64,000 nucleotides of DNA from an uncultured Eubacteriales bacterium. GTDB lineage: Bacteria; Bacillota; Clostridia; Oscillospirales; Oscillospiraceae. The notes under the pieces were generated by a model that saw only the letters and a program-made list of their open reading frames with translations, made no database searches and was not told where the DNA came from. The stretch's first letter is position 1; every line of letters starts with the position of its first letter. Below, in pieces: positions 2,805 to 53,100 of this stretch. The position numbers and the translations under genes were made by a program. The stretch is taken from contig USGS01000001.1 in the NCBI GenBank assembly GCA_900554275.1, positions 5,036 to 69,035 of the forward strand, read 5' to 3'.

Positions 2805-2990
2805 AAAATTGTTAGTCCGCTGTGCACCGCGGCTAACACCACAATAGTCGTTTTTCCGCGATTTGCAAGAGATTGGCCCATATACGGCGCACGCAAATGG
2901 GATATTTCCATTTGCGGCGGCATTGACCGCCGCAAAAAGCAGCACAGCACCACATAGAAATCGTTCTATGCGGTGCTGTGCTGCTTTTTT
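2805..2990. repeat. Copy A of a ~180-bp conserved promoter/leader module (paralog at 7990-8200); contains 10-bp-arm palindrome (2887-2919) and a strong bidirectional intrinsic terminator hairpin (2933-2990)
   Basis: gttagtccgctgtgcaccgcgg... / cgcacgcaaatgggatatttccatttgcg / aaaaagcagcacagcacc...ggtgctgtgctgctttttt; ~75% identical to 8021-8200. Confidence 0.6.
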
Positions 2991-3097: not shown

Positions 3098-3954
3098 ATG
3101 CGGAAGAAATTGGAGATCACGGAGAAGGAATTGGCGCGATTTGCGGGGTATCTGCGGCGGGAGGAGCGGGAAGCATCCACCATCGAATCTTACATGAGGG
3201 CGGCGAGGCAGTTTGCCGCGTGGCTGGATGGCCGCGTGGTGACGAAGGAGCTGGCGGCGGCGTGGAAGGCGCAGCTGCCGGAGCAGGGTTACCGCCCCGT
3301 CAGCGTCAATGCCATGCTGGCGGCGGTAAACAAGCTGTTCGTCTGCATGGGGCGGGAGGACTGCAAGGTGCGGTACCTCAAGCTCCAGCGGCAGATGTTC
3401 CGCAAATCGGAACGGGAGCTGACCCGTGCCGAATACCAGCGGCTGCTGGACGCAGCCCAGACGAGGGGGGACATACGCCTGCTGCTCCTGCTGGAAACCC
3501 TCTGCGCCACGGGCATCCGGGTCAGCGAGCTGCAATACATCACCGTGGAGGCGGCACGAAACGGCGTAGCAGAAATCGCACTGAAGGGCAAAATAAGAAC
3601 TATTCTTCTGCCCACAAAGCTGTGTCGCAAGCTATTGAAATACGCCAAAAAGTGTGGCATCGTCCACGGGCAGATATTCCTGACAAAAAGGGAAACAGGC
3701 TGTCCCGGAAATTCATCTGGGCGGAGATGAAAAAGCTGTGCGAGGCGGCGAAGGTGGCGCGGAGCAAGGTGTTTCCTCACAACCTGCGGGGGCTGTTCGC
3801 CCGGGCATTCTACGCCGCCTGCCGGGATGTGGTGCGGTTGGCGGACGTGCTGGGGCACAGCAGCATCGAGACGACCCGGATCTACCTGCTGTCCACGGCA
3901 AAAGAAAGTGCCCGCCAGCTGGACAGGCTCGGTCTGCTCAGCGGGTGGGCATAA
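3098..3954 (+). pseudogene. Tyrosine site-specific recombinase/integrase (XerC/D-phage integrase family), interrupted by -1 frameshift in A5 tract at 3685-3689
   Basis: N-terminal SAM-like domain in frame of 3098..3730; C-terminal catalytic region (HNLRG...LGHSSIETTRIY, R..H.xR..Y) in frame ending 3954; one extra A would give LTKKGNRLSRKFIW continuous protein. Confidence 0.7.
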
Positions 3955-4647: not shown

Positions 4648-5118
4648 TTATTGCATATCTCTCAGCTTTCCCGCCTCGCTGATTGACATCACGCAGACGA
4701 CCTCCAGCCCTTTCAAAATCCGCGGCATATCCTCATCACTGCGGATGGGGTCATCGGCGGAGTGGTGCTCTGCAAATAGTTCAAAGCGCGTGCCCTGCGG
4801 CAGTTCCGTCAGCTTGAGGAGATAATAAAACGTGCGCTCTCTGGGCGGGCAGCAGTGGAGCAGATAGCTCACGCAGCCCTCCAACCAGCGCTTTGCCCTC
4901 CGCAGCGCAGCACGGCCGGAGCAGGATGCCAGCGAGAACAGCAGCCTGTCGGCGATGTAGTCGGCCATAAGCGGTTTGGACAGCCCCTGTAAATGCTGCG
5001 GCAGCAGGATCGTCAGCGGTGTATCCAGCGCCAGCAGCCTGCGGCGCTGCTGATAGAGCTCATTGTCTACCTTGCGGATAAAATCCTCCGCCTGATGGCG
5101 GTCAAGAGACGTGGCCAT
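4648..5118 (-). CDS. Hypothetical protein (156 aa), overlaps ClpX-like gene stop by 17 nt
   Basis: Translational coupling with upstream clpX-like; no recognisable domain. Confidence 0.45.
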   Translation of the reverse strand: MATSLDRHQAEDFIRKVDNELYQQRRRLLALDTPLTILLPQHLQGLSKPLMADYIADRLLFSLASCSGRAALRRAKRWLEGCVSYLLHCCPPRERTFYYLLKLTELPQGTRFELFAEHHSADDPIRSDEDMPRILKGLEVVCVMSISEAGKLRDMQ

Positions 5119-6229
5119 AGACGTTACCTCCCAGTGTTACAGCGCCGGAGAGCTTGCCCTCCGCCAACGCATACAGCAGCGGCTGCACCAACGCTTCCAC
5201 CGCGCCGTCCAGCCCCCGGGCGCCCGTTCCCTGCACCACAGCCTCACAGGCCAACTGCTCCACCAGTTCATCCGGCAGCTTGAGCCGAACCTTGTGGGCG
5301 CGGAAAAATTTCCTGTACTTCACGAATGCTGAGAGGTTGGATTCAGTCAGGATGCGCCGCATCTGCTCCGTGGTCAACTGCTCCACCGGCACGAACCGAC
5401 CGATGCGGCCCATCAGCTCCCGTTCCATGCCGTAGGCGCAGAAATCCTCGGCGGTGCGCTGAGTGACCGTGGGATGGGACGGCTCGTCCCGCACGAAGCC
5501 GATAGGATCGGCGTATCTCTGTGCATCCCGCATCCTGCCGAACGCGCCGCCGAACAGGAACAGCAGATCGGCGGTGTTGATGGTCGCCCTCTCCGTGGTG
5601 ACCTCCATCCCCTCCACCATCTTCAAAAGCGCGTGCTGCGTCCCCTGACAGTACGATTGACGCCAATCATTACCGTGAGCGGACAGCTTGTCCACCTCAT
5701 CGATGAAAATGATGGCGTGTCGGACTCGAGGGTGCTCCTTGAAGCCCGCCAACAGGTCTGTCACGATGTCCGCCGCGTTTTTCCCGCGATACCCCGTCTC
5801 GGTGATGCCGGTGGCATCCACAGTGAGAAACGGCAGCCCGGCGATCCTGGCTGCCTCACGGATGATAGCCGTCTTGCCGCAGCCGCTGGGTCCATACAGC
5901 AGCAGATTGGTTCGGGGAACGCCGGCATCCCCGTTGGCGCGGAGCATCTGCTTCCAAACTGCCAGCGCCACGGCAGCCTTTGCCTGCTCCTGCCCGATGA
6001 TGGACTTATCCAGTTCCTGAACGATGTGCTGCGGCGTGATAGATGGCGCAGATACAGCCTCCTCCGTGACCTCGTCAGACGCTTCCAAAATATGAAACGA
6101 GGTTTGGAGACAACCGCGGCAGACCATCCTGCCGGTGCTGCCCACCACATGATCGTTGCCGAGGATGTTGATGACGCCCTTGCACAGGGCGCAGCGCGAG
6201 ACGACCGGGGTTCGTTTTTTCTTGCTCAT
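5102..6229 (-). CDS. ClpX-like AAA+ ATPase (ATP-dependent unfoldase paralog) with N-terminal C4 zinc-ribbon
   Basis: CALCKG...CRGC zinc finger; IGQEQAK; Walker A LLYGPSGCGKT; Walker B IIFIDEVDKL; sensor/GYVG-region; AGGAG RBS. Confidence 0.8.
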   Translation of the reverse strand: MSKKKRTPVVSRCALCKGVINILGNDHVVGSTGRMVCRGCLQTSFHILEASDEVTEEAVSAPSITPQHIVQELDKSIIGQEQAKAAVALAVWKQMLRANGDAGVPRTNLLLYGPSGCGKTAIIREAARIAGLPFLTVDATGITETGYRGKNAADIVTDLLAGFKEHPRVRHAIIFIDEVDKLSAHGNDWRQSYCQGTQHALLKMVEGMEVTTERATINTADLLFLFGGAFGRMRDAQRYADPIGFVRDEPSHPTVTQRTAEDFCAYGMERELMGRIGRFVPVEQLTTEQMRRILTESNLSAFVKYRKFFRAHKVRLKLPDELVEQLACEAVVQGTGARGLDGAVEALVQPLLYALAEGKLSGAVTLGGNVYGHVS

Positions 6230-6411
6230 GTGATCACTCCTTATTTCAGAATGATCGGGGGTGGATGTAAAAGACGTTTCTCCTTATTTTCATCATCAAA
6301 CCTCCATGCAAAGTACTGATATGCCGAATGGCACGACACCCGTTTTCACACGCGGTGCTTTTCTCTGTGGTCGGCGCATAGAAAAAAAACGCACCTCTCC
6401 GTCTATTTTAT

Positions 6412-6447
6412 GTCACAAATAATATTCATTTTTGTGACTTTGTCAAT
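6412..6447 (-). promoter_or_regulatory. Consensus sigma-A promoter (TTGACA-16-TATTAT) for ClpX-like operon, overlapped by 8-bp-arm inverted repeat GTCACAAA...TTTGTGAC (putative operator)
   Basis: minus-strand reading ttgacaaagtcacaaaaatgaatattatttgtgac ~190 nt upstream of ATG at 6229. Confidence 0.5.
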
Positions 6448-6650
6448 AGCGGATTTGCTGTTTCTGTACTTTTTGCGTCAATTCGTGCACCATGCATATA
6501 TATCACCTGCATTTTGCACGCCATAATTGGACGTTTTGAACATATTTCATTGGTACGTCACACAAAACAAACGCAGGCGACTCCCGCTTACAACGGAGAG
6601 CCGCCTGCTGCTCGATGTTCATTTCAGCCTGCATTCGATCGACGCACGGA

Positions 6651-7292
6651 CTATCGCCCCGCCCTGCCATAGCAGTCGCATATAAGCTCAATAATGGGGC
6701 GCAGTCTCGGAGGCACAAGAGAGAGTTTCTCTATCAGGTCCTTTTTGACCTCGGGCGCAAGCGTTCGGGACAGCTCCGCAATCTCGTCGATGGTAATCCT
6801 GTGCCTGTCCAGATCCGAAAGCGCGCTGATAACAACAGCGCCCTCATCCGAGAGGCCATCAAACAGCTTTGCCGCGGAATGAACCAGCAGCACCTCATGA
6901 CCGGGGGCATATTCGACACGTGTCTTAGGGCCTGTGCTCAGGTACTTCGGCAGCTTCGGGTCTTCATCGGACAGACCGATCCTGCGCCTCGCAAGCTCTG
7001 TAGCCGGAAGTATCCTCCAGTGGTTTCTCCGGGCAAGGGCCTGCGCCACAGCTTCATGAGACGGCAGCGCAGGGACATCGTCACACTGTTTCGGGTTCAG
7101 CCGATACAGGCCCATGCAGATACGCTCTATACGCTCACTCTGCGCAAGGCGGGACAGCGCCTTGCGGACCGCATCATAGCTGCCCAGCGCATCGAAATCC
7201 TCCACAGCAAACACCGCATCGTGCGGCTTGGCATACATAAACGAAATGATCTCCCGTTCACACGCGTACAGCTGCTCCTGCATCGTCCCCAC
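6651..7292 (-). CDS. DUF6088-like (AbiEi-type wHTH) family protein
   Basis: 213 aa; pattern R..R.G.Y...P......A.ALA....W.I.P....A..LGLS...P..Y...GP.. resembling DUF6088/AbiEi-like proteins common on Firmicutes mobile elements; assignment from memory only. Confidence 0.45.
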   Translation of the reverse strand: MGTMQEQLYACEREIISFMYAKPHDAVFAVEDFDALGSYDAVRKALSRLAQSERIERICMGLYRLNPKQCDDVPALPSHEAVAQALARRNHWRILPATELARRRIGLSDEDPKLPKYLSTGPKTRVEYAPGHEVLLVHSAAKLFDGLSDEGAVVISALSDLDRHRITIDEIAELSRTLAPEVKKDLIEKLSLVPPRLRPIIELICDCYGRAGR

Positions 7293-7561
7293 CTCCGTTC
7301 GTACTTGTCACAAATTATACTGGTTTTCGCAGAATTGTCAAGTTTGGCGCATTTCGGCTATTCCATTTCGAGGCAAGCTACCCACGTATCTTGCCCCACT
7401 ATGCTGCAACCGCACGGCTCATGCAACAGGCTGCCGGCCCACATTTGGACAATCAGTGAATGATCAGTCGCCGATCCCTTGCACCAACATGGGACAGATA
7501 TACCACATGTAGCCATCCCCCACAGCCAGGGAGGACAGACACTCTCCCCGCATCCATAGTA

Positions 7562-7927
7562 TCAAGACAGAGGACAGATCCCCTTCCACGTGAGAGAAAA
7601 CCGATACTCATTAGGCTTGCGGAGAGCCTTCATGCTCCGCACTTCGATCCATCCTCCGGCCTCAAGCTCCCGGATATACCGGCAGAGCGACGAGTGCGGG
7701 ATGCCGTACTTCTTCGCCGCACTCCGGGGCAGGCGAAATTCGCGCCGCGGCCCGGCCTCCATCGCCATACACAGGAAACAGTATCGCGCTCCGTGGGAAA
7801 GCCGCTGAAACCGATACGACAGCAGCAGCGTATTGCCGAGCTGGATGAAACGCTTTTCATCGCAGTCTACCCGCGCCGTCAGCCACGGCCGGAGCGTCGC
7901 TCCGGCTTTTCTTCTGGAAGCGCTCAT
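7562..7927 (-). CDS. Small HTH-domain protein
   Basis: 121 aa; RLPRSAAKKYGIPHSSLCRYIRELEAGGWIE helix-turn-helix segment; GGAGGTGA RBS. Confidence 0.45.
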   Translation of the reverse strand: MSASRRKAGATLRPWLTARVDCDEKRFIQLGNTLLLSYRFQRLSHGARYCFLCMAMEAGPRREFRLPRSAAKKYGIPHSSLCRYIRELEAGGWIEVRSMKALRKPNEYRFSLTWKGICPLS

Positions 7928-7989
7928 CTCGTCACCTCCCGTGCCGCAGTGCCTGCATCTTTCGCCGCCGGCATATAAGTGTTATTGGT

Positions 7990-8200
7990 GTTATTGGTCA
8001 TGTGTGACCACCTCCATAGTGTAAGTCCGCTGCGCGCCGCGGCCAATAACACATTAGCCCATATTTCACCATAAATCAATGGATCTGCCCGTATATGGCG
8101 CACGCAAATGGGATCTTTCCATTTGCGTCAGTGTCCTATATGCAAAAGCAGCACAGCCCCGCGTGTTCCACGCGATGCCGTGCTGCTTTGTCGTGACAAC
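7990..8200. repeat. Copy B of conserved promoter/leader module; includes remnant 5' end of a second Cys-rich-VLP-like gene (minus-strand mini-ORF 7925-8001, MTNNTNNTYMPAAKDAG..), palindrome 8099-8128 and terminator-like hairpin 8146-8195
   Basis: gtaagtccgctgcgcgccgcgg.../cgcacgcaaatgggatctttccatttgcg/ aaaagcagcacagcc..gtgctgcttt; N-terminus MTNNTNN.. parallels MTKNNRTSHL of 2402..2791. Confidence 0.55.
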
Positions 8201-8309: not shown

Positions 8310-9473
8310 TCATGTAAGCTTAGTAAAGTTCAGTTCATCCATCTGGTCTGCCAGCCAGTCCATAGCCTCGGTTTCGTTGGAGAAGGAAGAGTCGAAGATA
8401 ACAAAGTCGTTCTCACTGTAAGTCAGGTGGCCGTCATCGCCCATCATGCAGTCGGGGTATACAACAAAGATGACGTCCTCATAGGGCTCATCGTCCCAAG
8501 GATTGTCAAGTACGACCTTGGCAACGCCGATGATGCCGCAGTACCCGCTAAAACCGTGGGTCATATCAAAGAAGTAAGTGCCAGGCATCTTGGGCTCAAA
8601 GTAATACAGAGACCAGAACTCGGAATCCAGGACGGGCATGTCTTTGGTGAGAATGTCCTCGGCAGCATAAGACAGAGCGGAAGACATAGTCAACTCTTCA
8701 AAACGGGTACGCTCGGAAACGGACAGCCCGTCAGAGGGGCGGAAAAAGTCCTTCAGGCCGGAGACAGTATATGTCTTACTGCACTGCTCGGGGACAGTAT
8801 AGCCCAAAGAAGCAAAATACTGCTGGTCGAAAACGGCAGTCAGGGTGATTTCATCGCCGTTGGACAGGTTGTAGTTATTGGCGAAGCTATAGGTCACACC
8901 CTTATACATCGCATCATCAGAGACCAGGCCGACAATGGCCTCGCCACCGCCAGAGGCACCGATGAGGGCAACGGAAATGACGTCCTCGGAGAAGGGGTCA
9001 AAAGGCAGGCCGTCAGCCAGGCCTTCCACGGTATAGGTGATCTTGCCGCCGCGCAGCTCGAAGTCCAGCTTCTCATTGGTAGGGTTATCGAAGCTGACGG
9101 TCAGCGTCACCTTGTCGCCGTTGGACAGGTTGTCGGACTTGTCTGCCACCACAGAGACTCCCTCCAGAGCGGCCCAGATCTTCTCGGTCTTCAACAGGTT
9201 CTCCTCGCTGAAAAGGGCTTCAACATCCTTATCGTTCTTGACGTCGATGCCGGCGATCTTCTGATACACGGAGTAGCTGTCAAAGGAATACTCCAAATGA
9301 CCATATCCGTCTGCGCCGGATACGGCATCGATACTCACGTAATCTGTCAGGTCAATACTCTTGCCGCTGCAGGCGGTCAAGGTCAGCGCCGCCGCCATCA
9401 ACAGCAGGGACAGGCAAATAGTTCGGAAATTCGTGTGTTTCATAATAGTCTCTCTCCTATTGTTTTTATTCAC
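8310..9473 (-). CDS. Secreted lipoprotein (signal peptide + lipobox LTAC)
   Basis: MKHTNFRTICLSLLLMAAALTLTACSG; 4-nt overlap with upstream sigma-fusion gene. Confidence 0.7.
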   Translation of the reverse strand: MNKNNRRETIMKHTNFRTICLSLLLMAAALTLTACSGKSIDLTDYVSIDAVSGADGYGHLEYSFDSYSVYQKIAGIDVKNDKDVEALFSEENLLKTEKIWAALEGVSVVADKSDNLSNGDKVTLTVSFDNPTNEKLDFELRGGKITYTVEGLADGLPFDPFSEDVISVALIGASGGGEAIVGLVSDDAMYKGVTYSFANNYNLSNGDEITLTAVFDQQYFASLGYTVPEQCSKTYTVSGLKDFFRPSDGLSVSERTRFEELTMSSALSYAAEDILTKDMPVLDSEFWSLYYFEPKMPGTYFFDMTHGFSGYCGIIGVAKVVLDNPWDDEPYEDVIFVVYPDCMMGDDGHLTYSENDFVIFDSSFSNETEAMDWLADQMDELNFTKLT

Positions 9474-11164
9474 CCCTCATAGGGCCGCCATATCCATTCG
9501 ATGTTGTCCAAGATTGTATCGTACTGCTCGATCATCGCCGTATATGTGTTCTGCGTTTCGGGCGTAAATTGGACGTCGGTGGGACGGCTGGCGACGAATT
9601 GCCGGATGATGCCGCTGGCGGGGTGTGCGTATGTGCCGAGGTACGTGTAGTCGGGCCAGTGCAGATAGTCCGTGCTGTCAGGGCCAAACAGCGTGACAGA
9701 AAATAATTCGCCCGCGCCTGCGGCATAGCTTTCGACCTCATACACGGTGTAGTACTCCCGCAGGCCGTCATCGCTGAAATTGTTGTCAATAATGACCTTA
9801 CCCTCCCAATCCGCCGGGAAATGGAGGATAAGCTCCACCATCTCAACAGTAAAGTCGCTTTTGGGCGTGAACTCGTTGGGCTTCAATTCCAGCCGCTCGG
9901 CGGTTTTGACAAAGGTGTCGCCGTCTGTTTCGCCCGGGAAATAGTAATAATCCTCGTAATCGGCATCCATTCGGTCTTTATAAAACTGTTCTGCCTTACC
10001 GACATAAGAGATACCGGGACGCCCCATACAGCGAAGGTAGGTATCATTGATGAGATAGATTGAATCGTAATAGCTGCCGACATCGCCGACCAGCCGAAGG
10101 CCGTCATCGTCATAGGCGTAGAACTGGGCATCCGTCAGCCACTCCGCTGTCCCGGGATTGTTGGCTGTCAGAAGCTCAGGGATACTGTCCTTCTCCAGGT
10201 CAAAGGTGGTGTAATACTTGATCTCCAAGCCGCTGTCCGTGACACCTCGCCGGAGCAATTCTTCATAAGCAGCGTATGCCTCCGCCGCCTGTTCTTCCAC
10301 CGACACTGCCGTTTGCACGACAGCATCCGACACATCGACAGCTCTGTCGACGACTGCATTTTTTGCCGCGGCTGCGCCGCCTGCGACCAGGCCTGCCGCC
10401 AGCACACCTGCGGCGATTTTGACCGCCAAACCGCCCGCGGCCTTGCCGGTGACCGCAGCCGCCGCGCCCGAAGCAACCACATCGGTTGCCGTGGCCGCGG
10501 CAGCGCCCGCCGCCGTAAGCCCGGCGGGCAGCGGCATCGCCTCGGCCTCCTGCCGCAGCAGCAGGGTCAGCAGCGCCATAGGTGCGAGGCCGTACAGCTT
10601 CGTGTCCTGCTTTTCCAGCGCTTCCACCTTGGACTTGACCTTCCGCCGCCCATAGTTCAGACGGCTTTTTACCGTGCCCTCTGACACCTGCAGCGCCTGG
10701 GCGATCTGTGACACAGACAGTTCATCCCGATAATACAGCAACAGACACAGCTTCTGATCCTCCGGCAGTCCGTCGATAATCTCCGCCACCAGGCGCACCG
10801 TCTCCTGATGCTCCAGCCGCACCTCCGGCAGATTCTCCTCCCGGTCGTCCGCCCAATCCGGCGCTGGGGCATCGTCCTTTTGCAGCTCGGTGAACAGGGC
10901 AGGTTTTTTCTTCTTCAGATAGTCCCGGCACTTGTTGGCCACGATCATATATAGCCACGAGGGGAATTTCTCCGCCTCCTTCAGCTGCGACAGTCTCCCA
11001 AGGGCGGCCAGGTACGCCTCCTGCGTCAAGTCCTCCGCGTCCTGCGAATTGCCGCAGACCTTCAGCGCCACGAAGTACACCTCCCGACAGGTGGCGTTAT
11101 AGAGCTCCTCCCACGCGGCAGTGTCCCCCTGTACGGCGCGAGGAACAGTTTTCGCCCAGTTCAC
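9470..11164 (-). CDS. ECF (sigma-70 family) sigma factor fused to a transmembrane segment and ~330-aa extracytoplasmic C-terminal domain (single-chain sigma/anti-sigma-like)
   Basis: Region 2 (DLTQEAYL..FPSWLYMIVANKCRDYLKKKK) and region 4 (LPEDQKLCLLLYYRDELSVSQIAQALQVSEGTVKSRLNYGRRKV), then Ala/Gly-rich hydrophobic stretch, then acidic/aromatic-rich domain. Confidence 0.75.
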   Translation of the reverse strand: MNWAKTVPRAVQGDTAAWEELYNATCREVYFVALKVCGNSQDAEDLTQEAYLAALGRLSQLKEAEKFPSWLYMIVANKCRDYLKKKKPALFTELQKDDAPAPDWADDREENLPEVRLEHQETVRLVAEIIDGLPEDQKLCLLLYYRDELSVSQIAQALQVSEGTVKSRLNYGRRKVKSKVEALEKQDTKLYGLAPMALLTLLLRQEAEAMPLPAGLTAAGAAAATATDVVASGAAAAVTGKAAGGLAVKIAAGVLAAGLVAGGAAAAKNAVVDRAVDVSDAVVQTAVSVEEQAAEAYAAYEELLRRGVTDSGLEIKYYTTFDLEKDSIPELLTANNPGTAEWLTDAQFYAYDDDGLRLVGDVGSYYDSIYLINDTYLRCMGRPGISYVGKAEQFYKDRMDADYEDYYYFPGETDGDTFVKTAERLELKPNEFTPKSDFTVEMVELILHFPADWEGKVIIDNNFSDDGLREYYTVYEVESYAAGAGELFSVTLFGPDSTDYLHWPDYTYLGTYAHPASGIIRQFVASRPTDVQFTPETQNTYTAMIEQYDTILDNIEWIWRPYEG

Positions 11165-11493
11165 TCCTGCGCCTCCGCTTCCTCCGGGGCACGCAGTCGG
11201 ACGACGGCCCGGATCAACGCGATAGGATAGGCGACCCAGCCCGTGATCATGGCCACCACCAGCCGCAGCATATAGAAGATGATCATGACAGGCAAACTTC
11301 CCACCAAGCCAAAGGTGATGACCTTACCACTGAGCTGCCAGCCGTAGGGTACACCGGCAAAAAAGATGGCAAAGAGCAGCACGCCCCACCATTCCTTGTC
11401 GCCGCTGCTGGTGGCAAGAATGACACCTACCACCACGCCGATCAGGCCCTTAATGATGAGCTTTTTCAGTTCTTCTTTTCTCGTGTTCATTTT
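11161..11493 (-). CDS. Small integral membrane protein (3 TM), start at MNTRKEEL (GGGAGGA RBS); ORF track extends to 11622
   Basis: Hydrophobic helices; ATGA overlap with sigma gene start. Confidence 0.5.
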   Translation of the reverse strand, partial: KMNTRKEELKKLIIKGLIGVVVGVILATSSGDKEWWGVLLFAIFFAGVPYGWQLSGKVITFGLVGSLPVMIIFYMLRLVVAMITGWVAYPIALIRAVVRLRAPEEAEAQE

Positions 11494-11715
11494 GTTTCCT
11501 CCCGTTTCTCCTCTGCTTTGTTTGTGTTGTCCCAACCTCTGGGGAATTGAAGCGATTGAAACAGTGCTGCCAGCGCTTCCCGGATAAGCTGACCCAGCCG
11601 GTCCATATAGACGTACCTCCATCTCTGTGATGCCTATAAGACGAGCACGGGTCTATGACGGTTTTATGAAATAGAAAAACTTTTTTAGTTTCCAAATTCC
11701 GCCACCGTCAAGCGT

Positions 11716-11790
11716 ATTGACCAGTATAGCGGTCAATATCTAAACCGAGTGTAGCATACAATAGCCTCAGTTGCAACCAATACTGGTCAA
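11716..11790. promoter_or_regulatory. 11-bp inverted repeat TTGACCAGTAT...ATACTGGTCAA (plus internal TTGACC-N8-GGTCAA) in divergent promoter region upstream of XRE gene
   Basis: seen directly at 11716-11726 and 11780-11790. Confidence 0.35.
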
Positions 11791-11811
11791 AAATTTGCCT
11801 GAGGTGAGAGA

Positions 11812-12063
11812 ATGGAACAGAAAATCAGACGTGACCGCAATATGGGCGATAATCTGCGGCGGCTGCGGAAAACACACAAGCTGTCACAGGAGAAGCTGTG
11901 CGCCGAATTGCAGCGGCGTGGCTGCGACATCGGGCGCACGACCTACGCCAAGTATGAGTCCGGTGAGCTGAACATCCGCGCCAGTGTGCTTATCGAGCTG
12001 CGGAGCATTTACGACTGCGCGTATGAGGAATTCTTTACGGGGCTGGAGATGCGGAACGAGTAA
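11812..12063 (+). CDS. XRE-family HTH transcriptional regulator
   Basis: 83 aa; LRRLRKTHKLSQEKLCAEL...TTYAKYESGE; GAGGTGAGAG RBS. Confidence 0.75.
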   Translation: MEQKIRRDRNMGDNLRRLRKTHKLSQEKLCAELQRRGCDIGRTTYAKYESGELNIRASVLIELRSIYDCAYEEFFTGLEMRNE

Positions 12064-12190: not shown

Positions 12191-12222
12191 GCACGCAAAT
12201 AGAAATTTCCCATTTGCGTGCG
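12191..12222. promoter_or_regulatory. Copy C of palindromic operator GCACGCAAAT-N11-ATTTGCGTGC, ~20 bp upstream of -35 of promoter (tgacgt-16-tataat) for 12341 gene
   Basis: same 10-bp arms as in copies at 2887-2919 and 8099-8128, same position relative to a promoter. Confidence 0.5.
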
Positions 12223-12340
12223 CCTAAAACGCCGTAAGCTAGTGACGTCCGAAGTCCTCACCCGTATAATATAGCCAAATGCAGCGCTGTGTAATTTATC
12301 CTACAAATGGCAATACTATCCAGTACAGGGAGGGTACAAA

Positions 12341-12589
12341 ATGGAACTCGACATTAAAAAGGATCAGGGCATCGCTCTGATCTGGCTGACTCGGGCAGAG
12401 TCCGCAGACCCCGCCGTCAGTGAACATCTGAAGCCGATCTACGCAGAGTGCCGCGCACAGGGGCTGATGCCTGTCGTCATGCACTCCGGCAGCGGAGATC
12501 TCTACGCCAACACCCGCGATCTGCTGGTCGATACCCGCCGCCGTCAGGCGGAGAAGGCGGTGCGGGCAGAGCGGGCGGCCTCACGCTGA
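12341..12589 (+). CDS. Hypothetical small protein (82 aa)
   Basis: ORF downstream of predicted promoter; no recognisable domain. Confidence 0.4.
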   Translation: MELDIKKDQGIALIWLTRAESADPAVSEHLKPIYAECRAQGLMPVVMHSGSGDLYANTRDLLVDTRRRQAEKAVRAERAASR

Positions 12590-12716
12590 GAATATAGGGA
12601 GGCCGATGGGCCTCCCTATATCACATTTGGCCTTGCATACCGCCGCAGCGTATGATACAATGTAGTCTATAATCAGATTGCATTATCTAAACAAAATTGG
12701 TAGGTCGAGGTGTGCT

Positions 12717-13727
12717 ATGGAACAGAAAATTTCGGAAACCAGTGAGATCCTGCTGTATCAAAACGGCGACGACAAGGAGTACATCCGCGTTATCTTTCAA
12801 GATGAAAATTTTTGGCTGACACAGGCCGGTATGGCAGAGCTGTTTGACTCCAGCAAATCCAACATCAGCGAACACCTGACACATATCTTCGATGAGGAAG
12901 AACTTGATAAAGCCGCCTGCATGAGAAAATTCGGAATTTCCGAATTTTCTACGAAACCCACCCACTTCTACAACCTCGACGCCATCATCGCCGTCGGCTA
13001 TCGCGTGAATTCCAAAAAGGCCACGCGCTTCCGCCAGTGGGCGACGAGGACGCTGAAAGAGTACATCCAAAAGGGCTTTGTGCTCAATGACGAGCTGATG
13101 AAAAACGGCCACCCCTTCGGCAAGGATTACTTCGAGGAACTGCTGGAGCGCATACGTGAGATCCGCGCCAGCGAGCGCCGGGCCTATCAGAAAATCGCAG
13201 ATGTCTTCGAGCAGTGCAGCTACGACTACGACAAGAACAGCGAGACCACGAAAGCCTTTTACGCCTTCGTACAGAACAAGCTGCATTATGCCGTCACCGG
13301 CAAAACCGCCGCGGAGCTGATCTCCGAACGGGCCACGCTGGACAGCCCCACTATGGGTCTGACTAACTGGAAAGGTGCGCCGGACGGAAAAATTCTGAAA
13401 AGCGACACGCTGGTGGCAAAGAACTATCTGAGTGAAAAGGAACTGTCCCGTCTGAATCGCTTGGTGACCATGTTCATCGACTATGCCGAGCTGATGGCGG
13501 AGGATGAACAGTTGATGTCCATGCAGGACTGGCTGGAGGAGACGGATCGCTTCCTGACCAACAATCGCCGTCAGGTACTGGAGAGCAAAGGACACATCTC
13601 TCGAGATGCAGCCATGAAGAAAGTCGGTGCGATTTACGATGAATTCCGCAGGAAGCAGGACGCGGAATACATCTCCGAGTTCGACCGCGAGATAGCAAAA
13701 TATCTGAAAGGCGGTGAGACTCAATGA
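12717..13727 (+). CDS. RhuM-family virulence/Fic-DOC-associated protein
   Basis: YQNGDDKEYIRVIFQDENFWLTQAGMAELF... characteristic RhuM N-terminus; stop overlaps recombinase start (ATGA). Confidence 0.7.
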   Translation: MEQKISETSEILLYQNGDDKEYIRVIFQDENFWLTQAGMAELFDSSKSNISEHLTHIFDEEELDKAACMRKFGISEFSTKPTHFYNLDAIIAVGYRVNSKKATRFRQWATRTLKEYIQKGFVLNDELMKNGHPFGKDYFEELLERIREIRASERRAYQKIADVFEQCSYDYDKNSETTKAFYAFVQNKLHYAVTGKTAAELISERATLDSPTMGLTNWKGAPDGKILKSDTLVAKNYLSEKELSRLNRLVTMFIDYAELMAEDEQLMSMQDWLEETDRFLTNNRRQVLESKGHISRDAAMKKVGAIYDEFRRKQDAEYISEFDREIAKYLKGGETQ

Positions 13728-15892
13728 TCGAACGCTTTGACATCGCGGGCTACTGCCGCATCTCCGTGGATGAGGAGCTGGATCGGGACAACACCTCCAT
13801 CGAGAACCAAAAGGCGATCATTACCGACTTCGTCAAGCATCGCTTTCCGGACAGTACCTTGACCTTCTACGAGGACCGCGACCGCTCCGGCTACACCTTC
13901 GAGCAGCGGGAGAATTACCAGGCCATGCGCCGGGGGCTGATGTCCCGCAAATATGACATCCTCATCGTCAAGGACTTCTCCCGCTTCTCCCGCCGCAACT
14001 CCCGCGGTTTGGTGGAGCTGGAGGACCTGCGGGACGCAGGCGTCCGCATCATCTCCATCGGCGACAATATCGACTTCCCCAACGACGATGACTGGCTGAA
14101 GATTCAGTTTCAATTCCTCATCAATGAGATGCCCGTCACCGACACCAGCAAAAAGGTCAGGTCCGTCATCAAGCGCCGCCAGACCGATGGCAAATGGCTC
14201 TGCGCCGCGCCCTACGGCTACCTCATCAACAAGGCGCAGCAGTTCGAGATCGTCCCCACCGAGGCAGACATCGTGCGGCAGATCTTTCAGCTTTACAACG
14301 ATGGCTGGGGCTACAAGAAGATCGCCAACCACCTCACCGACCAGGGCATCCCCACGCCCCGTATGTCCGAGCGGGAGCGCCGCGAAGCCCAGGGCGAGAG
14401 CGTCAAGCGCGCCGCCAAGTCCGCGTGGGCCATCGTCACCGTGCAGGGCATATTGGACAACGATTTCTACATCGGCACGCTGCGGCAGGGCAAATACACC
14501 CGCCGGAAGATCAACGGCGCGGAGGTCAAGCGGGACGAGAGCGACCACCTGGTGTTCGAGCACCACCATCAGGCCATCATCGATTACCGCACCTTCGCCA
14601 CCACCCGCGCCCTGCGCCAGCAGCGCACCACCAGCCATTACCGGGGCGTAAAGATCAACGATAACACCTACTCCGGCTTTCTCTTCTGCGGCGACTGCGG
14701 CAGCCCCATGTTTGCCATGAGCCGTTCCGATCTCAAGGACGCCTACCGCTGCGGCGAGTACCACAGGCGGGGTCTGAAGGCCTGCACCAGCCACCATATC
14801 CGGGTAGACAGGCTGGACCAGCTGCTGAAGCTGTATATCCAAAAGGTGAAGGACAACTCCGCTTCCATGCTGGAGCGGCTCAACGACGATCTTGCCCGCG
14901 AGCAGGAGGACGTGGCCGAGACGGAGCGCGCCGCCGAAAACCTGGAGCAGCTGCTGCTGGACGCGCAGGAGGAGCTGAAGGCCACCAAGCGCCAGCGCAT
15001 CCGGGACATCATGAAGCACCCGGAAAACGAGGAAACGCTGGCGGAGACCTACGACGAGCTGGAAAACGACCTCCTGCACCGCATTGAGGGACTGCACCAT
15101 CGGATCGCCATGGCTGAGGACAAGCGCAACACCATCATCCGGGTCAACCGCGCCGCCAAAACGGCTATGGAGGTCTTTGATGACCTGCTGCACAAGGAGC
15201 GGCTGGACCGCAGCGACCTGCAGCTCATCATCGACAAGATCAAGGTCTACGAGGATCACCTGGAGGTCTGGCTCAAGTCCGACATCGACACGCTGCTGCG
15301 CTGCGGCACGCTGCCTGAGGAGGGTGCGCCCGCCGCCGTGGAGGGTGATATTATCTCCTTCCCCAAAGACGCGGAGAGCGCCCCTCCCATCACCCTCATT
15401 CAACAGACCTCCAACCGCCCCGACAAGGTCTTTCGTGTCAATGTCATCAGCAACGGCGACCCGTTGGAGATCTACACCACCCGGGACGGGGAGGTCATCT
15501 TCAAGAAGTATTCCCTCATCAGCGGGCTGGAGGATTTTGCCGCCCAGTTCTGCGACACGCTGGCCCGCAGCACCGACTTCACCGCCGCCGTCACCGACCG
15601 GGACGCGGTCATCGCCATCGCCGGGGCGGGCAAGCGGGAGCTGCTGGGCAAGCGGATCTCCGTGGAGCTGGAGCGCATCATGGGCGAGCGCGGGGTGTAC
15701 TGCGGGCCGGGGGTGGCCGTCAGCGACGAGAACGGGCAGTTCCGCGTCACCGTGGCCGCGCCCATCCTCTGCGAGGGCGACGTGCTGGGCGCGGTGCTGT
15801 TCCTCTCCGCCGATGACCGCACCGGCGGCGAGACGGAGTGCAAGCTGGCCCAGACCGTGGCCGCCTTTCTGGGCAAAAATATGGAGAGCTGA
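13724..15892 (+). CDS. Large serine recombinase (resolvase/TndX-SpoIVCA family) fused in-frame to the C-terminal GAF-like domain of stage V sporulation protein T (SpoVT); probable right end of an intervening element in spoVT
   Basis: N-term resolvase domain (catalytic S in YCRIS), recombinase and Zn-ribbon (CGDCGSPM...CGEYHRR..C) domains, coiled coil; residues ~560-722 GDPLEIYTTRDGEVIFKKYSLISGLEDFAAQF...GDVLGAVLFLS....ECKLAQTVAAFLGKNMES align with B. subtilis SpoVT 30-178. Confidence 0.8.
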   Translation: MIERFDIAGYCRISVDEELDRDNTSIENQKAIITDFVKHRFPDSTLTFYEDRDRSGYTFEQRENYQAMRRGLMSRKYDILIVKDFSRFSRRNSRGLVELEDLRDAGVRIISIGDNIDFPNDDDWLKIQFQFLINEMPVTDTSKKVRSVIKRRQTDGKWLCAAPYGYLINKAQQFEIVPTEADIVRQIFQLYNDGWGYKKIANHLTDQGIPTPRMSERERREAQGESVKRAAKSAWAIVTVQGILDNDFYIGTLRQGKYTRRKINGAEVKRDESDHLVFEHHHQAIIDYRTFATTRALRQQRTTSHYRGVKINDNTYSGFLFCGDCGSPMFAMSRSDLKDAYRCGEYHRRGLKACTSHHIRVDRLDQLLKLYIQKVKDNSASMLERLNDDLAREQEDVAETERAAENLEQLLLDAQEELKATKRQRIRDIMKHPENEETLAETYDELENDLLHRIEGLHHRIAMAEDKRNTIIRVNRAAKTAMEVFDDLLHKERLDRSDLQLIIDKIKVYEDHLEVWLKSDIDTLLRCGTLPEEGAPAAVEGDIISFPKDAESAPPITLIQQTSNRPDKVFRVNVISNGDPLEIYTTRDGEVIFKKYSLISGLEDFAAQFCDTLARSTDFTAAVTDRDAVIAIAGAGKRELLGKRISVELERIMGERGVYCGPGVAVSDENGQFRVTVAAPILCEGDVLGAVLFLSADDRTGGETECKLAQTVAAFLGKNMES

Positions 15893-49130: not shown

Positions 49131-50105
49131 TTATCCGGCGGCATATCCGCCGCCTACGTCATTGCCCAGATCGCAGGTGTAGAGCCACTCCACCACATCG
49201 CCGTTCTGCAGCGCGTAGCGGGAGCAGCCGTAGTTGGGAAACCAGCCGTTGACCCGGTACATCCAGCCCGAGCCCTGGCTTACATCGAACTCGTACAGAT
49301 TGTTGATGCCCTCCACATAGGCGCTGTTATACATGGGCGTCCAGCTGGCCTCCATGTGGATGCCGTTCTCCCGACAGACCCGCTGCAGCACGTCATAGAC
49401 GCTCTCGCCCTCGCTGAACGTGACGGTGGTGCTGGGAAGGATCACGCCGTCGGAGGGGACTAAGGGCTTCTTCGCCGCGGCGGTGTCTGCGTCCCACTCG
49501 TCCCAGGCGTCCCAGTTGGCCAGGATCGTGCCGCAGGAGATGGAGATGGTGCAGGTATACTTGGTGGTCTCGTCCACCGTGGTGTCCTGCGGCTCGGAGG
49601 GTGTGGGCTTTCCCTCGGGAACGGGGTCAGTCTCATACTTGTCCTTGCCCGTATCAGGATCAATGACCTGCTCCGGCTGCTTCTTCTGCTCGTCCTGTTT
49701 CTTTTTTTCTTCCTCTAACCGTTTCTGTTCCTCTTGCTTTTTCTGTTCCTCTTGCTTTTTCTGTTCCTCTTGCTTTTTCTGTTCTTCTAACCGCTTCTGC
49801 TCCTCCAGCTTTTTGGCCTCGTCAGCGGCTGTCTGGCCCGCGTTCGCCGCGTCTGTCTTTGTATTGGTCTTGGTGTCAGTCGTATCGGTCTTGGCGTCGG
49901 TCTTGTCTCCAGCCGCCGTGCCGTCCTTCTTGTCCTCCGTCCTGGCCGTGTCGCCGGTCTTGCTGTCAACGGTCTGTTCCTGTTTGGTATCGGGCGCTGC
50001 GTCGCCGTCAGCCGCCTTTTTCTTGCCGCAGGCGGTGCAGGTCAGCAGCATGGCCAGGGCCAGCGCCACCAGCCAAAAGCTACGTTTTCTCATCATGCTC
50101 TCCAT
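49131..50105 (-). CDS. Lipoprotein with E/K/Q-rich repeat linker and C-terminal DUF4430 (transcobalamin-beta-like) domain
   Basis: Lipobox LLTCTAC; (EEQKKQ)n repeats; C-terminal SGWMYRVNGWFPNYGCSRYALQNGDVVEWLYT matches DUF4430 pattern. Confidence 0.7.
   Translation of the reverse strand: MESMMRKRSFWLVALALAMLLTCTACGKKKAADGDAAPDTKQEQTVDSKTGDTARTEDKKDGTAAGDKTDAKTDTTDTKTNTKTDAANAGQTAADEAKKLEEQKRLEEQKKQEEQKKQEEQKKQEEQKRLEEEKKKQDEQKKQPEQVIDPDTGKDKYETDPVPEGKPTPSEPQDTTVDETTKYTCTISISCGTILANWDAWDEWDADTAAAKKPLVPSDGVILPSTTVTFSEGESVYDVLQRVCRENGIHMEASWTPMYNSAYVEGINNLYEFDVSQGSGWMYRVNGWFPNYGCSRYALQNGDVVEWLYTCDLGNDVGGGYAAG
49690..49810. repeat. 18-bp tandem repeat (ctgttcctcttgcttttt) x~4 encoding EEQKKQ repeats
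   Basis: seen directly; in-frame so length variation would keep frame. Confidence 0.7.
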
Positions 50106-50167: not shown

Positions 50168-53100
50168 TTACTTGGATGCACGCTTTTTCTTCTGTGTCAG
50201 TACCACCACGGCGGCTGCCGCCAGGATGGCGCTGCCCATCCAGATAGTCATCTGGCTGTCGTCAGCCGTGTTGGCGGAGGTGGGCTTGACAACAGTGGTG
50301 CTGCCGCTGCCGCCACCGCTGCTGCTGCGCTCCGTGTAGCTTATCGCCACCGGGGACAGGCCCGTCAGCGTGACCAGCAGGCCGTCCGCCGTCATAACGG
50401 CGGCGGGGAATTCCACCGTGCCCACGTCCTTGCCGCAGCCGGCCATGGTCACCAGGTGGGCCACCGTGAAGCTGTAGCTTCTGTAGTCACCGGCCACCTC
50501 GCTGGGATAGGGCAGCAGCACGGTGATCCGGCCGCCAGTCAGGTCGTCCTTTGTGGCAGGGCGTGACACGCCGTTCTCCGTGACCGTCAGGGTCACCTCC
50601 ATCATCACAGTGTTCTTCTCCGTGATGGCGTTGTTCTCCCGGCTGATCTCCAGCTGCAGGGTGCTCTTCACCTTTTCGGGGGTGTTCAGCTTCTCGTTGT
50701 CCGCCACGACGGAGGAAACGTCCGCCTTGACGTCCACCTTCTTCACAGTGCTGTCGCTGGTCTTCATCAGGCCGCAGACGCACTGTACGCCCTGTACGTA
50801 GGTGTGGGACTCCTTGGTCAGCACCGCACCGCAGACGGTGCAGGTGAGCCAGTGGCTGTCCTTATCCATGGCGTAGACCGTACCGGCCTTGTGGCCCAGT
50901 GCGGGGATGTCCTTGGTCTCCTTCGCCTCACCGCACACGGTGCAGGTACGGGTGGAGACACCGGTCTCAGTGCAGGTAGCCGCCTTGGTAACGGTCCATT
51001 CGCCGAACTTGTGGCCCAGCGCGGGAATGTCCTTGGTCTCCTTCGCCTCACCGCACACGGTGCAGGTACGGGTGGAGACACCGGTCTCGGTGCAGGTAGC
51101 CGCCTTGGTAACGGTCCATTCACCGAACTTGTGTCCCAGCGCCGGGACGGTCAGGGTCTCCTCCGCGCCGCACACGGTGCAGATACGGGTGGAAACGCCG
51201 GCCTCGGTGCAGGTGGCCGCCTTGGTAACGGTCCATTCGCCGAACACGTGCTTGATGCACACGTCGTTCATGTCATACAGGAAGCTCCGGCCTCCGGTCA
51301 GGCGCATATACGCCGCCAGGGCATAGTAGGATTGCTCAGTGCCCATCTGATCCACGGTGGCGTCCGCGAGCTGATGCTTGAAGGCCTCGCCCGTGTAGAA
51401 GGTCAGCAGGCCGTCCACCACATGGAAGGAATTCTTGGCGAAGCGTGCGTCCGCGGTGGGATCGATACCCAGGGCGCACAGGGCCACCAGTACCTGGGCG
51501 GTGGACTCGCTGCTGCTGGCCGCGCCCGCCATTTCGGCAAACGAGCCGTCGGACTTCTGCATGGTGCTGAGCCAGGTCAGCGCCTTGTCCACAGCGGCCT
51601 TCACCGCTTCGTTGGTCTTGTAGTAGGGAGCAAGCGCCTGGATGGCCATGGCGGTCATGTCCACGTCATCCGTGGCGTTGGTGCTGTTGATGTACCACGC
51701 GCCGCTGTCCTTCTGCAGAGACAGGATGGTCTCCACCAGCGCGTCGCGGGTCACGCTGCCTGCGGGGGTATAGCCGTGGCTGTCCAGGGCGATCAGCGTC
51801 CACACCGGACCGTTGGTGCCCTGCCGCTTGACGTACTTCATATCGTCCAGACCGGCCAGCAGATCGAAGCCGCCCACATCGGTGACATCCTTGCCGATGG
51901 CCGTCAGGGCCAGGATCAGCCGGGCGTTGTCCGTGGACTTATTACGGTCGAGCCGGTTGGTGGTGGTGTTGATCTCGGCCTTGACGTAGGCCACAGCGTT
52001 GTCGTAGTAGCCCTCCGGCACGGTGCGGCCGCTGCGGGCCAGGCCGATGGTCAGCCACTCGCCGCCGATGCTGCCCACGATGGGCGTGCCCTTGCCGGAC
52101 AGATAGTCGCCGGTGGTCTTATAGGCCTCCTGCACGTCCGGACCGGCGGGCTTGGCCACCGTCAGGGTGACGGTATAGGGCGTGCTGGTCTTCTCGCCGT
52201 CGCTGGCGGTAAACACCAGCGTGGTCTTGCCCACGAGAACGGCGGTGTAGCGGAAGGATGCCTCCGCCGCCACAGGCGCAGCGCCGTTGATGCTGACCGC
52301 GTAGGTCATCTCGTCGCCGTCCGCGTCGGTGAAGATAGCGGACAGGTCAATGGTGTACTCGTCGTGGAGCGTCACACCGGCCTCCGCACCCTCGGCGGCC
52401 GCCGCGGGCGCGGTGTCGGCGATGGTCAGGCCGCTGACATAGGCCATGTCAGCGCCGTTGTTGCCGCCGCTGTCCTTCACATAGGTCACGGTGAGCGTCC
52501 ATGTACCGGCGGTCAGAATGCCGTTGTAGGTATCCGCCTTTGTGCCGCTGATGCCGCTGGCAACGGTGTTGGTCTCCGTGCCGTTGCTCAGGGTGATGGT
52601 GGCCTTGTCGTAGTTCTCCTCGGAGGAAACGCCGAAGTCGAAGGCGATGGTGCGCTGGCGATCCAGCGTGAACACGAAGGAGGTCGTGGAGGTGGAGCTG
52701 TTCGCGCCCGCGTTGCCGCTCTCGAAGCGCTCAGCGGCGCTGTTGTAGGTCCAGGGATACTTGCCCTCGTCCGTCATGGCGGCGCTGACAACGCCGGTGG
52801 CGGGCAGGGTCACATACTCCAGACGTGTATCGGCCCAAACCGTGATGAGCTCATTGCAGACATCGCAGGTGTAGGTGTAATAGGCGGGATAGACCGTCCT
52901 CGTGCCGGCGCGCTCCGTGTGGCCGGTGGCGGCCACATAGGTGTCGCGATAGGACTCCCGGCACAGGGTGCAGGTGCGGAGGGTGTAGCCCTTCTCCGTG
53001 CAGGTGGGCGGGACCACCGTGCCGCCCTCGGCCTTGTGGAAGGTCACGTCCTTCTGCCACTTCAGAGCGGGATAGCCGCCGCAGGTCGGGCCAAAGGCCT

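Follow-up and report, generated by a model that had tools for sequence, protein, structure and literature searches.

Dyad sites before three operons of a mobilizable element

Integrative mobilizable elements (IMEs) are abundant in gut Clostridia and, to our knowledge, almost nothing is known of how they decide to excise and transfer. The DNA analysed here is a 64,000-nucleotide (nt) stretch of an uncultured Eubacteriales bacterium of the Oscillospiraceae (assembly GCA_900554275.1, contig USGS01000001.1, positions 5,036 to 69,035 of the forward strand), referred to as the window and numbered from its first letter. The first ~15.5 kb of the window is part of an IME of human-gut Clostridia, which runs past the left end of the window. 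Searches of Pfam and NCBIfam identified a relaxase and a NikA-like accessory protein, and no mating-pore genes were recognised in the parts of the element seen. Three operons carry its mobility-related genes. The first, on the minus strand, begins with a 129-amino-acid (aa) Cys-rich protein with no family match (2402-2791), followed by the NikA-like protein (1781-2368) and a MobA/VirD2-type relaxase (460-1794). The second, also on the minus strand, couples a conserved short open reading frame (ORF) of 25 codons (MTNNTNNTYMPAAKDAGTAAREVTR; 7924-8001) to HTH121 (7562-7927), a 121-aa winged-helix protein with a CodY-like DNA-binding domain. The third, on the plus strand (12341-15892), encodes an 82-aa protein (12341-12589), RhuM (12678-13727) and a large serine recombinase (13724-15892).

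An inverted repeat, here termed the dyad, lies upstream of the predicted promoter of each of these operons. The pattern CGCAAAT-N11-ATTTGCG, with at most one mismatch, was found at 2892-2916 (site A), 8103-8127 (site B) and 12194-12218 (site C) and nowhere else in the 64 kb, whereas 0.02 sites were expected and none of 100 shuffled sequences reached three. A generalised pattern (MGNAAA-N13-TTTNCG) returned the same three sites alone, against 0.13 expected. An earlier reading made from the letters only (the sequence-only reading) had counted three palindromes, and this count is confirmed. Together with a conserved TGCG that follows the repeat (CGCAAA-N13-TTTGCG in site A), the sites occupy 2888-2916 and 8099-8127 on the minus strand and 12194-12222 on the plus strand. 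Site C is the most perfect palindrome (GCACGCAAAT-N11-ATTTGCGTGC), and GTGCGCC stands beside the inverted repeat in all three.

The predicted promoter of module A, TTGCAA-16-TATTGT (-35 at 2863-2868, -10 at 2841-2846, minus strand), is a weak sigma-A-type promoter with 8 of 12 consensus positions, and that of module B, TTGATT-17-TAATGT (-35 at 8074-8079, -10 at 8051-8056, minus strand), is also weak, with 7 of 12. Module C has GTGACG-17-TATAAT (-35 at 12242-12247, -10 at 12265-12270, plus strand; 10 of 12). A promoter scan of the window called C alone among the three, promoter A falling under the threshold. On the minus strand, modules A (~2792-2990) and B (~8002-8190) can be aligned over their whole length, from a terminator hairpin through the dyad, gap, -35, -10, leader and ribosome-binding site to the first codons, which agrees with the duplication and the promoter hexamers that the sequence-only reading had described. 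The terminator hairpin at the upstream edge of module A (2939-2984, minus strand), called by a terminator scan, is homologous to that of module B. The palindrome had been placed ~20 bp upstream of the -35, and this also held, the distance being 23 nt from the end of TTTGCG and 19 nt from the end of the conserved core (ATTTGCGTGCG). The third copy had been taken for a palindrome alone. This was mistaken, since the gap and the -35/-10 of copy C are homologous to the mobilization (mob) operon module of a sister lineage (D1, below) and are fused to a different leader, that of the 82-aa gene itself.

Module A carries, in addition, a short hairpin (GCGGCGG-TCAATG-CCGCCGC on the gene strand; 2914-2935) between terminator and dyad, which overlaps the distal edge of the dyad and is absent from modules B and C.

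The sequence-only reading had itself named a generic, genome-wide repetitive extragenic palindromic (REP) element with no promoter association as the alternative to a regulatory site. The exact 18-base motif gave 17 matches in 185,579 representative genomes, compared with ~17 estimated by chance (596 Gb), and no matches in 2.9 million viral contigs. The genome matches were scattered over Pseudomonas, Haemophilus, archaea and other unrelated taxa, and the sole match in Bacillota (L009) was unrelated on inspection. A REP or other generic genome-wide palindrome is ruled out by these chance-level matches and by the three copies in 64 kb, which all lie inside the mobile element and in a fixed relation to a promoter.

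Conservation of the dyad and of its distance from the promoter

Forty related metagenome loci were fetched, all of them versions of one IME family whose lineages are named window-type, D, E and F. Alignment of upstream regions gave eight module classes (A, B, C, D1, D2, E1, E2 and F) that share a 25-bp site, (C/A)GNAAA-N13-TTTNCG, and in the 40 loci this pattern matched module sites only. The half-sites are CGCAAA...TTTGCG in A, B and C, AGAAAA...TTTGCG in D and E1, and AGAAAA...TTTACG in E2. The F lineage has CGAAAA...TTTTCG, a change from the CGCAAA...TTTGCG of the window that is mirrored in both halves. Almost no variation is seen in the promoter-proximal half and the four bases after it (ATTTGCGTGCG). 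Polarity is conserved in the spacer, which has (T/A)(G/A)GAA distally and TC(C/T/G)C proximally, so that the orientation of the site towards its gene is constant.

The distance from the core to the -35 is exactly 19 nt in all eight classes, before -35 hexamers that read TTGCAA, TTGATT, GTGACG, GTGACT, TTGAAA or TTGTAA. Unlike this fixed gap, the spacer between -35 and -10 varies from 16 to 18 nt across classes. In 33 of the 34 unique sequences listed, the dyad lies 19 nt upstream of the -35 in the same orientation, the remaining entry being copy C on the opposite strand. Mean pairwise identity was 0.41 over the 25 nt upstream of the dyad, 0.82 in its left half, 0.71 in its spacer, 0.92 in its right half and 0.83 in the 4 nt that follow; it was 0.48 in the 19-nt gap and 0.58 in the -35 hexamer. 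The predicted promoters match the consensus at 7-8 of 12 positions in A, B, E2 and F, at 9 in D2 and at 10 in C and D1. With transcription predicted to start 7 nt after the -10, the centre of the dyad would fall at -70 to -72, depending on the 16-18-nt promoter spacer. Class-I sites are phased to the helix with centres near -61, -71 or -82, and the constant 19 nt of the eight classes with a predicted centre near -71 fits this series, in line with the class-I activator-like position that had been proposed for the palindrome.

Such a footprint bears on the idea that the dyad has no function of its own, being a passenger in a promoter cassette copied by recombination, and that it seems conserved only because its copies are recent or have been evened out by gene conversion. 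All classes do share a common descent, and modules stand at rearrangement junctions between lineages. Cassettes do recombine, because in one locus (L042) unrelated upstream DNA is joined to the same leader. However, the dyad block keeps 70-94 % identity in cassettes whose upstream 25 nt and 19-nt gap have fallen to 35-48 %. Paralogous mob-type and HTH-type modules also keep distinct gaps, -35s and leaders across the window, D and E lineages, which indicates that the module duplication is old and not recent. A passenger role is thought quite improbable.

Several other readings of the dyad were tried and rejected. As an intrinsic terminator it lacks a T-run after it, the terminator scan calls the separate hairpin at 2939-2984, and the stem is not kept in D, E or F. 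As an RNA hairpin it folds well in class A (-17.7 kcal/mol, z-score -5.5) and weakly in D1, D2 and F (-7.6 to -8.3 kcal/mol, z-score -0.6 to -1.8); because the hairpin is not maintained across classes, what is conserved is sequence and not structure. No RNA family in Rfam 15 matched either strand of the whole window. A promoter for an ECF sigma factor (GGAAA ... CGT inside the dyad) was dropped, as the classes do not share the candidate -10 and the spacings are unsuitable. The AbrB motif is a direct repeat; a reading of the spacer as an AbrB/SpoVT-type TGGNA site was dropped because its two TGGNA-like pentamers are inverted and only partly conserved.

The dyad follows the mobility operons through rearrangements

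Homologues of the Cys-rich protein and of HTH121 are confined to a small family from human-gut metagenomes. Neither blastn with module A nor tblastn with HTH121 gave a match to plasmids, a sequence search of the PDB with the relaxase gave none, PHROGs gave no informative match, and no description of the element family or of the dyad motif was found in the literature. HTH121, the Cys-rich protein, the NikA-like protein, the relaxase, an AAA protein, an XRE protein and a sigma factor are encoded in all four lineages, in differing gene orders. The D and E lineages have two divergent dyad copies. From one module the genes for the short ORF, HTH121, the 82-aa protein, (RhuM) and the recombinase run in one direction, and from the other the genes for the Cys-rich protein, NikA, relaxase, DUF6088 and AAA proteins run in the opposite direction, with XRE and sigma further on. 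The F lineage has a single module before one long operon (72-aa ORF, HTH121, tyrosine integrase, Cys-rich, NikA, relaxase) and retains the dyad in spite of having neither the 82-aa protein nor DUF6088. In the window lineage the recombinase operon is separated from HTH121 and has a dyad copy of its own.

The dyad has to be weighed against the possibility that it serves DNA transfer instead of transcription, the inverted repeat and the adjacent GTGCGCC forming the relaxosome binding and nick region of the mobilization system, that is, an origin of transfer (oriT). Copy A, like those of D1 and E1, is directly upstream of the NikA-like/relaxase operon, and GTGCGCC, which we take to resemble the MOBQ nick core (GTGCGCCCT), is found in A, B and C. 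The gene-proximal arm of the dyad is the better conserved, as it is in oriTs of the R1162 type. Yet one copy would be expected of an oriT, and the element has two or three, which in D and E point in opposite directions. Copies B, C, D2 and E2 stand before other operons, and in F the sole copy lies upstream of the NikA-like gene by 2.6 kb and three genes. The supposed nick core varies (GTGCGCC, GTGCGTT, GTACGTT, GCACGGT) despite relaxases that are ~84 % identical, classes D, E and F do not keep the hairpin, and it is to a promoter that the spacing is fixed. It is very unlikely that the dyad is an oriT.

The explanation favoured here, with a probability of about 0.55, is that the dyad is a cis-regulatory, class-I-like site through which one regulator co-controls the adjacent sigma-A-type promoters of the mobility operons of the IME. 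The sites exist, are specific to the element, have a fixed orientation and a 19-nt spacing with a conservation footprint, and follow their operons through rearrangements. This last property is the strongest argument for a real regulon. In the proposed mechanism, a dimer or higher oligomer of the regulator would occupy ~-84 to -55 on one face of the helix, centred near -71, and would control imperfect, mostly weak sigma-A-type promoters, most probably by class-I-like activation. Activation is favoured over repression because a site centred near -71 cannot block RNA polymerase. Since every one of them carries the dyad, the mobilization, short-ORF/HTH121 and 82-aa/RhuM/recombinase operons would be switched together. 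HTH121, the most likely binder, is encoded directly behind one dyad copy in every lineage and would for that reason feed back on itself. Once separated from HTH121 in the window lineage, the recombinase operon gained its own copy, with a D1-like dyad, gap and promoter and the leader of the 82-aa gene. The sequence-only reading had proposed a small regulon under one regulator; the element-specific, oriented sites at a fixed spacing before all mobility-related operons are in keeping with this, while the promoters and their transcription starts, binding by a protein, the identity of the binder and the activating direction are what we infer from that pattern. Its palindromic operator stands in part, symmetry being perfect in A, B and C, kept with altered bases in F and off by one position in the D and E lineages, and the spacer being polar.

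A conserved leader element and a short ORF behind the promoter

A second conserved element, AG(A/C)CGC(A/G)G(T/C)GC(A/G)CAGCGGAC, lies at ~+1 to +20 in all classes except C, and is retained in the locus with replaced upstream DNA. Its consensus occurs in the window at 2815-2831 and 8025-8041 only, compared with 0.02 sites expected. Leader element A (AGCCGCGGTGCACAGCGGAC; 2815-2834, minus strand) contains a near-palindrome of 14 bp, CGCNGTGCACNGCG, and might also fold into a 5' stem-loop. Leader element B (GGCCGCGGCGCGCAGCGGAC; 8025-8044, minus strand) has the central hexamer GCGCGC in place of GTGCAC. GTGCAC is the hexamer of mob-type modules (A, D1, E1) and GCGCGC that of HTH-type modules (B, D2, E2, F); the double change is symmetric, and self-complementarity is therefore kept. 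One variant, in L048, has GCGCAC. A stable RNA hairpin was rejected as the role of the leader, because the fold is significant for A alone (z-score -3.3, compared with -0.1 to -1.2 for B, D and F) and the changes in the outer stem are uncompensated. The element could act as a classical operator that covers the transcription start, or as a 5' stem-loop whose loop is self-complementary. In the latter case, a 5' hairpin with GUGCAC (mob-type) or GCGCGC (HTH-type) in an 8-nt loop could allow class-specific RNA-RNA kissing between transcripts; the two hexamers are presumably the same as those of the HIV-1 dimerisation loop.

The presence of this second near-palindrome ~80 bp downstream of the dyad, in modules A, B, D, E and F, raises the alternative that the dyad is an upstream repressor or architectural site, acting by looping to the palindrome at ~+5 to +18 (CGCNGYGCRCNGCG), by bending DNA or by insulating the promoter from read-through. 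In the window and the F type a terminator precedes each module, and the A/T-rich spacer of the dyad has A-tracts. The two palindromes are, however, unrelated in sequence, and module C has the dyad at its 19-nt spacing without any leader palindrome. A site near -71 could not by itself occlude RNA polymerase, and a number of the core promoters are predicted to be weak, as would be expected if they needed activation. Repression or an architectural role is regarded as unlikely.

The short ORF of module B begins with an ATG at 8001, and after 25 codons its TGA overlaps the ATG of HTH121. It is kept in D (~30 codons) and E (33 codons) with the same ending, AAREVT, and with a stop overlapping the HTH121 start. 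In the F type the same place is occupied by the 72-aa ORF, to whose N-terminus (MTNNDNIYMLAAEAA) the short ORF aligned with a score of 37, compared with a score of 25 against the Cys-rich protein. These alignments suggest that the short ORF is a remnant or a leader peptide of the 72-aa ORF. The sequence-only reading was right that the ORF exists and that its stop overlaps the HTH start codon, and wrong in regarding it as a truncated copy of the Cys-rich gene; the two share similar first codons because the beginning of each gene, a few codons long, is part of the duplicated module. Nor could the Cys-rich gene (2402-2791) be upheld as Cys-rich-VLP-like, as its product matched no Pfam family, Cys_rich_VLP included, even at E values up to 10, and no NCBIfam model.

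Candidate binding proteins

XRE, the HTH protein at 7562-7927 and DUF6088 had been put forward as the possible regulator. From the sequence comparisons and the structural model, HTH121 is the most likely binder of the dyad, and XRE and DUF6088 are poor candidates. HTH121 is preferred by elimination of the others and because a dyad module stands directly before its operon in every lineage. In its AlphaFold model (predicted local distance difference test score 72), a short N-terminal part rich in beta structure precedes a winged helix-turn-helix. A Foldseek comparison placed the model nearest to the CodY DNA-binding domain (E 5e-3, 26-29 % identity) and to initiator domains of the RepA_N type, and the Pfam match to HTH_CodY is weak (E 0.05).

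The 83-aa XRE protein (11812-12063, plus strand) is divergent from the sigma operon, and the intergenic region at 11700-11800 carries an inverted repeat, TTGACCAGTA (11717 on the plus strand, 11790 on the minus strand), which is kept in D, E and F loci and is probably XRE's own operator. XRE is disfavoured as the dyad binder because it has this conserved repeat of its own. Promoters of consensus grade were also found before the gene for the ClpB-like AAA protein (TTGACA-16-TATTAT, 6410-6450; gene 5102-6229) and before that for the DUF6088/AbiEi-like protein (TTGACA-16-TATAAT, 7305-7345; gene 6651-7292), all on the minus strand. Both overlap TTTGTGAC repeats, in the form GTCACAAA-N13-TTTGTGAC at the AAA promoter, and the repeat is kept in D and E loci. 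It may be the operator of the AbiEi-like DUF6088 protein. This protein is disfavoured for the dyad because TTTGTGAC lies at its own promoter and because the F type has the dyad and no DUF6088. The F type likewise lacks the 82-aa protein, which speaks against that candidate as well.

A number of observations weigh against a shared activator site bound by HTH121. All module classes descend from one ancestral cassette, and the constant 19-nt gap could for that reason partly reflect descent without insertions or deletions instead of selection. In the D and E lineages the distal half-site (AGAAAA) is off at one position, and the spacer is polar, so that the dyad is not a simple symmetric operator. 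The helix-turn-helix segments of HTH121 and of XRE are each identical in all four lineages although the half-sites differ at position 3, and no covariation between protein and site therefore backs HTH121. More distant HTH121 homologues (45-60 % identical; L051-L054 and L059-L062) occur in phage-like early operons without the dyad, next to small HTH_17-like genes and integrases; these homologues neither favour nor exclude HTH121 as the binder. Finally, loci such as L043 have module A and no HTH121 within 10 kb upstream.

The last of these points would be accounted for if the dyad were a helper-sensing box, at which an activator of a co-resident conjugative element binds and triggers excision and mobilization of the island, as a Firmicutes counterpart of the piracy by which Salmonella genomic island 1 (SGI1) exploits AcaCD. 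SGI1 uses AcaCD boxes, and mobilizable genomic islands (MGIs) use SetCD boxes, for helper-dependent firing of excision and mobilization genes. As in SGI1, the dyad precedes both the excision/recombinase and the mobilization operons, and the element has a relaxase and a NikA-like protein with no recognisable mating-pore genes in the parts seen. The lack of covariation extends to every protein of the element. Against this, no conjugative element with the dyad was found, the exact 18-base pattern being at chance level in the representative genomes and missing from the viral contigs, and the island has several DNA-binding proteins of its own, one of which is always encoded directly behind a dyad copy. 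Control by a helper element has a small probability, and binding by the island's own HTH121 is still preferred.

Other features of the element and of the window

A tyrosine integrase gene lies beside module A, split over two frames (3098-3954, plus strand). Its frames, 3098-3730 and 3220-3954, each match half of the Phage_integrase domain. The identical split is present in metagenome contigs L018 and L020, and it is therefore probably a real pseudogene or a programmed frameshift. The 564-aa ECF-type sigma factor (9470-11164, minus strand) has region 2 and region 4 within residues 1-180 and a C-terminal extension of ~380 aa that matches no family. Uncharacterised genes of 387 aa (8310-9473, minus strand) and 153 aa (11161-11622, minus strand) lie on either side of it, and this trio is kept in all lineages of the element.

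The C-terminal end of the serine recombinase ORF (13724-15892) is a SpoVT_C domain (Pfam, 1e-35), with homology to SpoVT starting from GDPLEIYTTRDGEVIFKKYS. When the recombinase was compared between lineages (window, L037 6079-8244 and L047 5116-7293), identity was 58-83 % in this C-terminal part and 85-93 % in the recombinase part, and the DNA directly 3' of the stop codon was unrelated among the three loci. From the SpoVT_C end, the lower conservation of the C-terminal part and the unrelated DNA past the stop, the element appears to be integrated inside the host spoVT, with the recombinase ORF continuing into the 3' part of that gene and the right end of the element near 15500.

A 282-aa ORF antisense to the DUF6088 gene (6615-7463, plus strand) is an ORF-calling trap, its tblastn matches in related loci merely shadowing the real gene. 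The host part of the window contains tandem repeats with units of 18 nt (49693-49800), 120 nt (three units, 50883-51239) and 57 nt (53200-53544), which probably belong to repetitive surface-protein genes with no relation to the dyad.

Comparison with known regulatory systems

Regulation through the dyad would give one IME family a control point made up of a 25-bp site, three target promoters and a few candidate binders, among which a CodY-like winged-helix protein comes first. If this is true, the site could be used to recognise members of the family, to predict the operons of the mobility programme and to tell activation by the element itself from activation by a helper element.

In mechanism, and not by homology, the dyad is most readily compared with CAP/CRP class I sites (centred near -61.5 or -71.5, as at lac and malT). 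These are two-fold symmetric, as the dyad is in A, B, C and F, and like the dyad they stand on one helical face ahead of an imperfect promoter of the sigma-70 type; the dyad is rigidly phased to the -35 with a predicted centre near -71. The half-sites are, however, unrelated and are 19 bp apart from centre to centre (CGNAAA-N13-TTTNCG), compared with ~10-11 bp for CAP/CRP. The spacer of the dyad is conserved and polar, the element encodes no CRP-family protein, and activation is here proposed from position.

The AcaCD boxes of SGI1 and the SetCD boxes of MGIs are similar in that one short motif precedes excision/recombinase and mobilization operons and defines a small internal regulon. In Proteobacteria, those boxes are bound close to the -35 by activators of the FlhDC family that a helper plasmid or conjugative element encodes, whereas the dyad is found in a gut Clostridium host, has another motif, is further upstream and is more probably bound by a protein of the island itself. 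In ICEBs1 (ImmR at Pxis) and at phage operators of the cI/Cro type, the element's own HTH protein controls an excision or transfer promoter through repeated sites, as is proposed here. Those sites differ in overlapping the core promoter, in mainly repressing and in a divergent arrangement of repressor and target; within the present IME, it is the XRE/sigma operon with TTGACCAGTA, and not the dyad, that has such an arrangement.

CodY, which binds AATTTTCWGAAAATT, has a C-terminal domain that most closely resembles the predicted DNA-binding domain of HTH121, by a weak match, and both sites have A/T-rich half-sites (GAAAAT-like or CAAAT-like). HTH121 differs in having 121 aa and a short beta-rich N-terminal part in place of the GAF sensor domain, and the spacing and sequence of the dyad are unlike those of the CodY box. 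By sequence the dyad falls in no described family found in Rfam or the literature. It is most probably an element-specific operator or activator site of an ordinary kind, which leaves current concepts of gene regulation unchanged.

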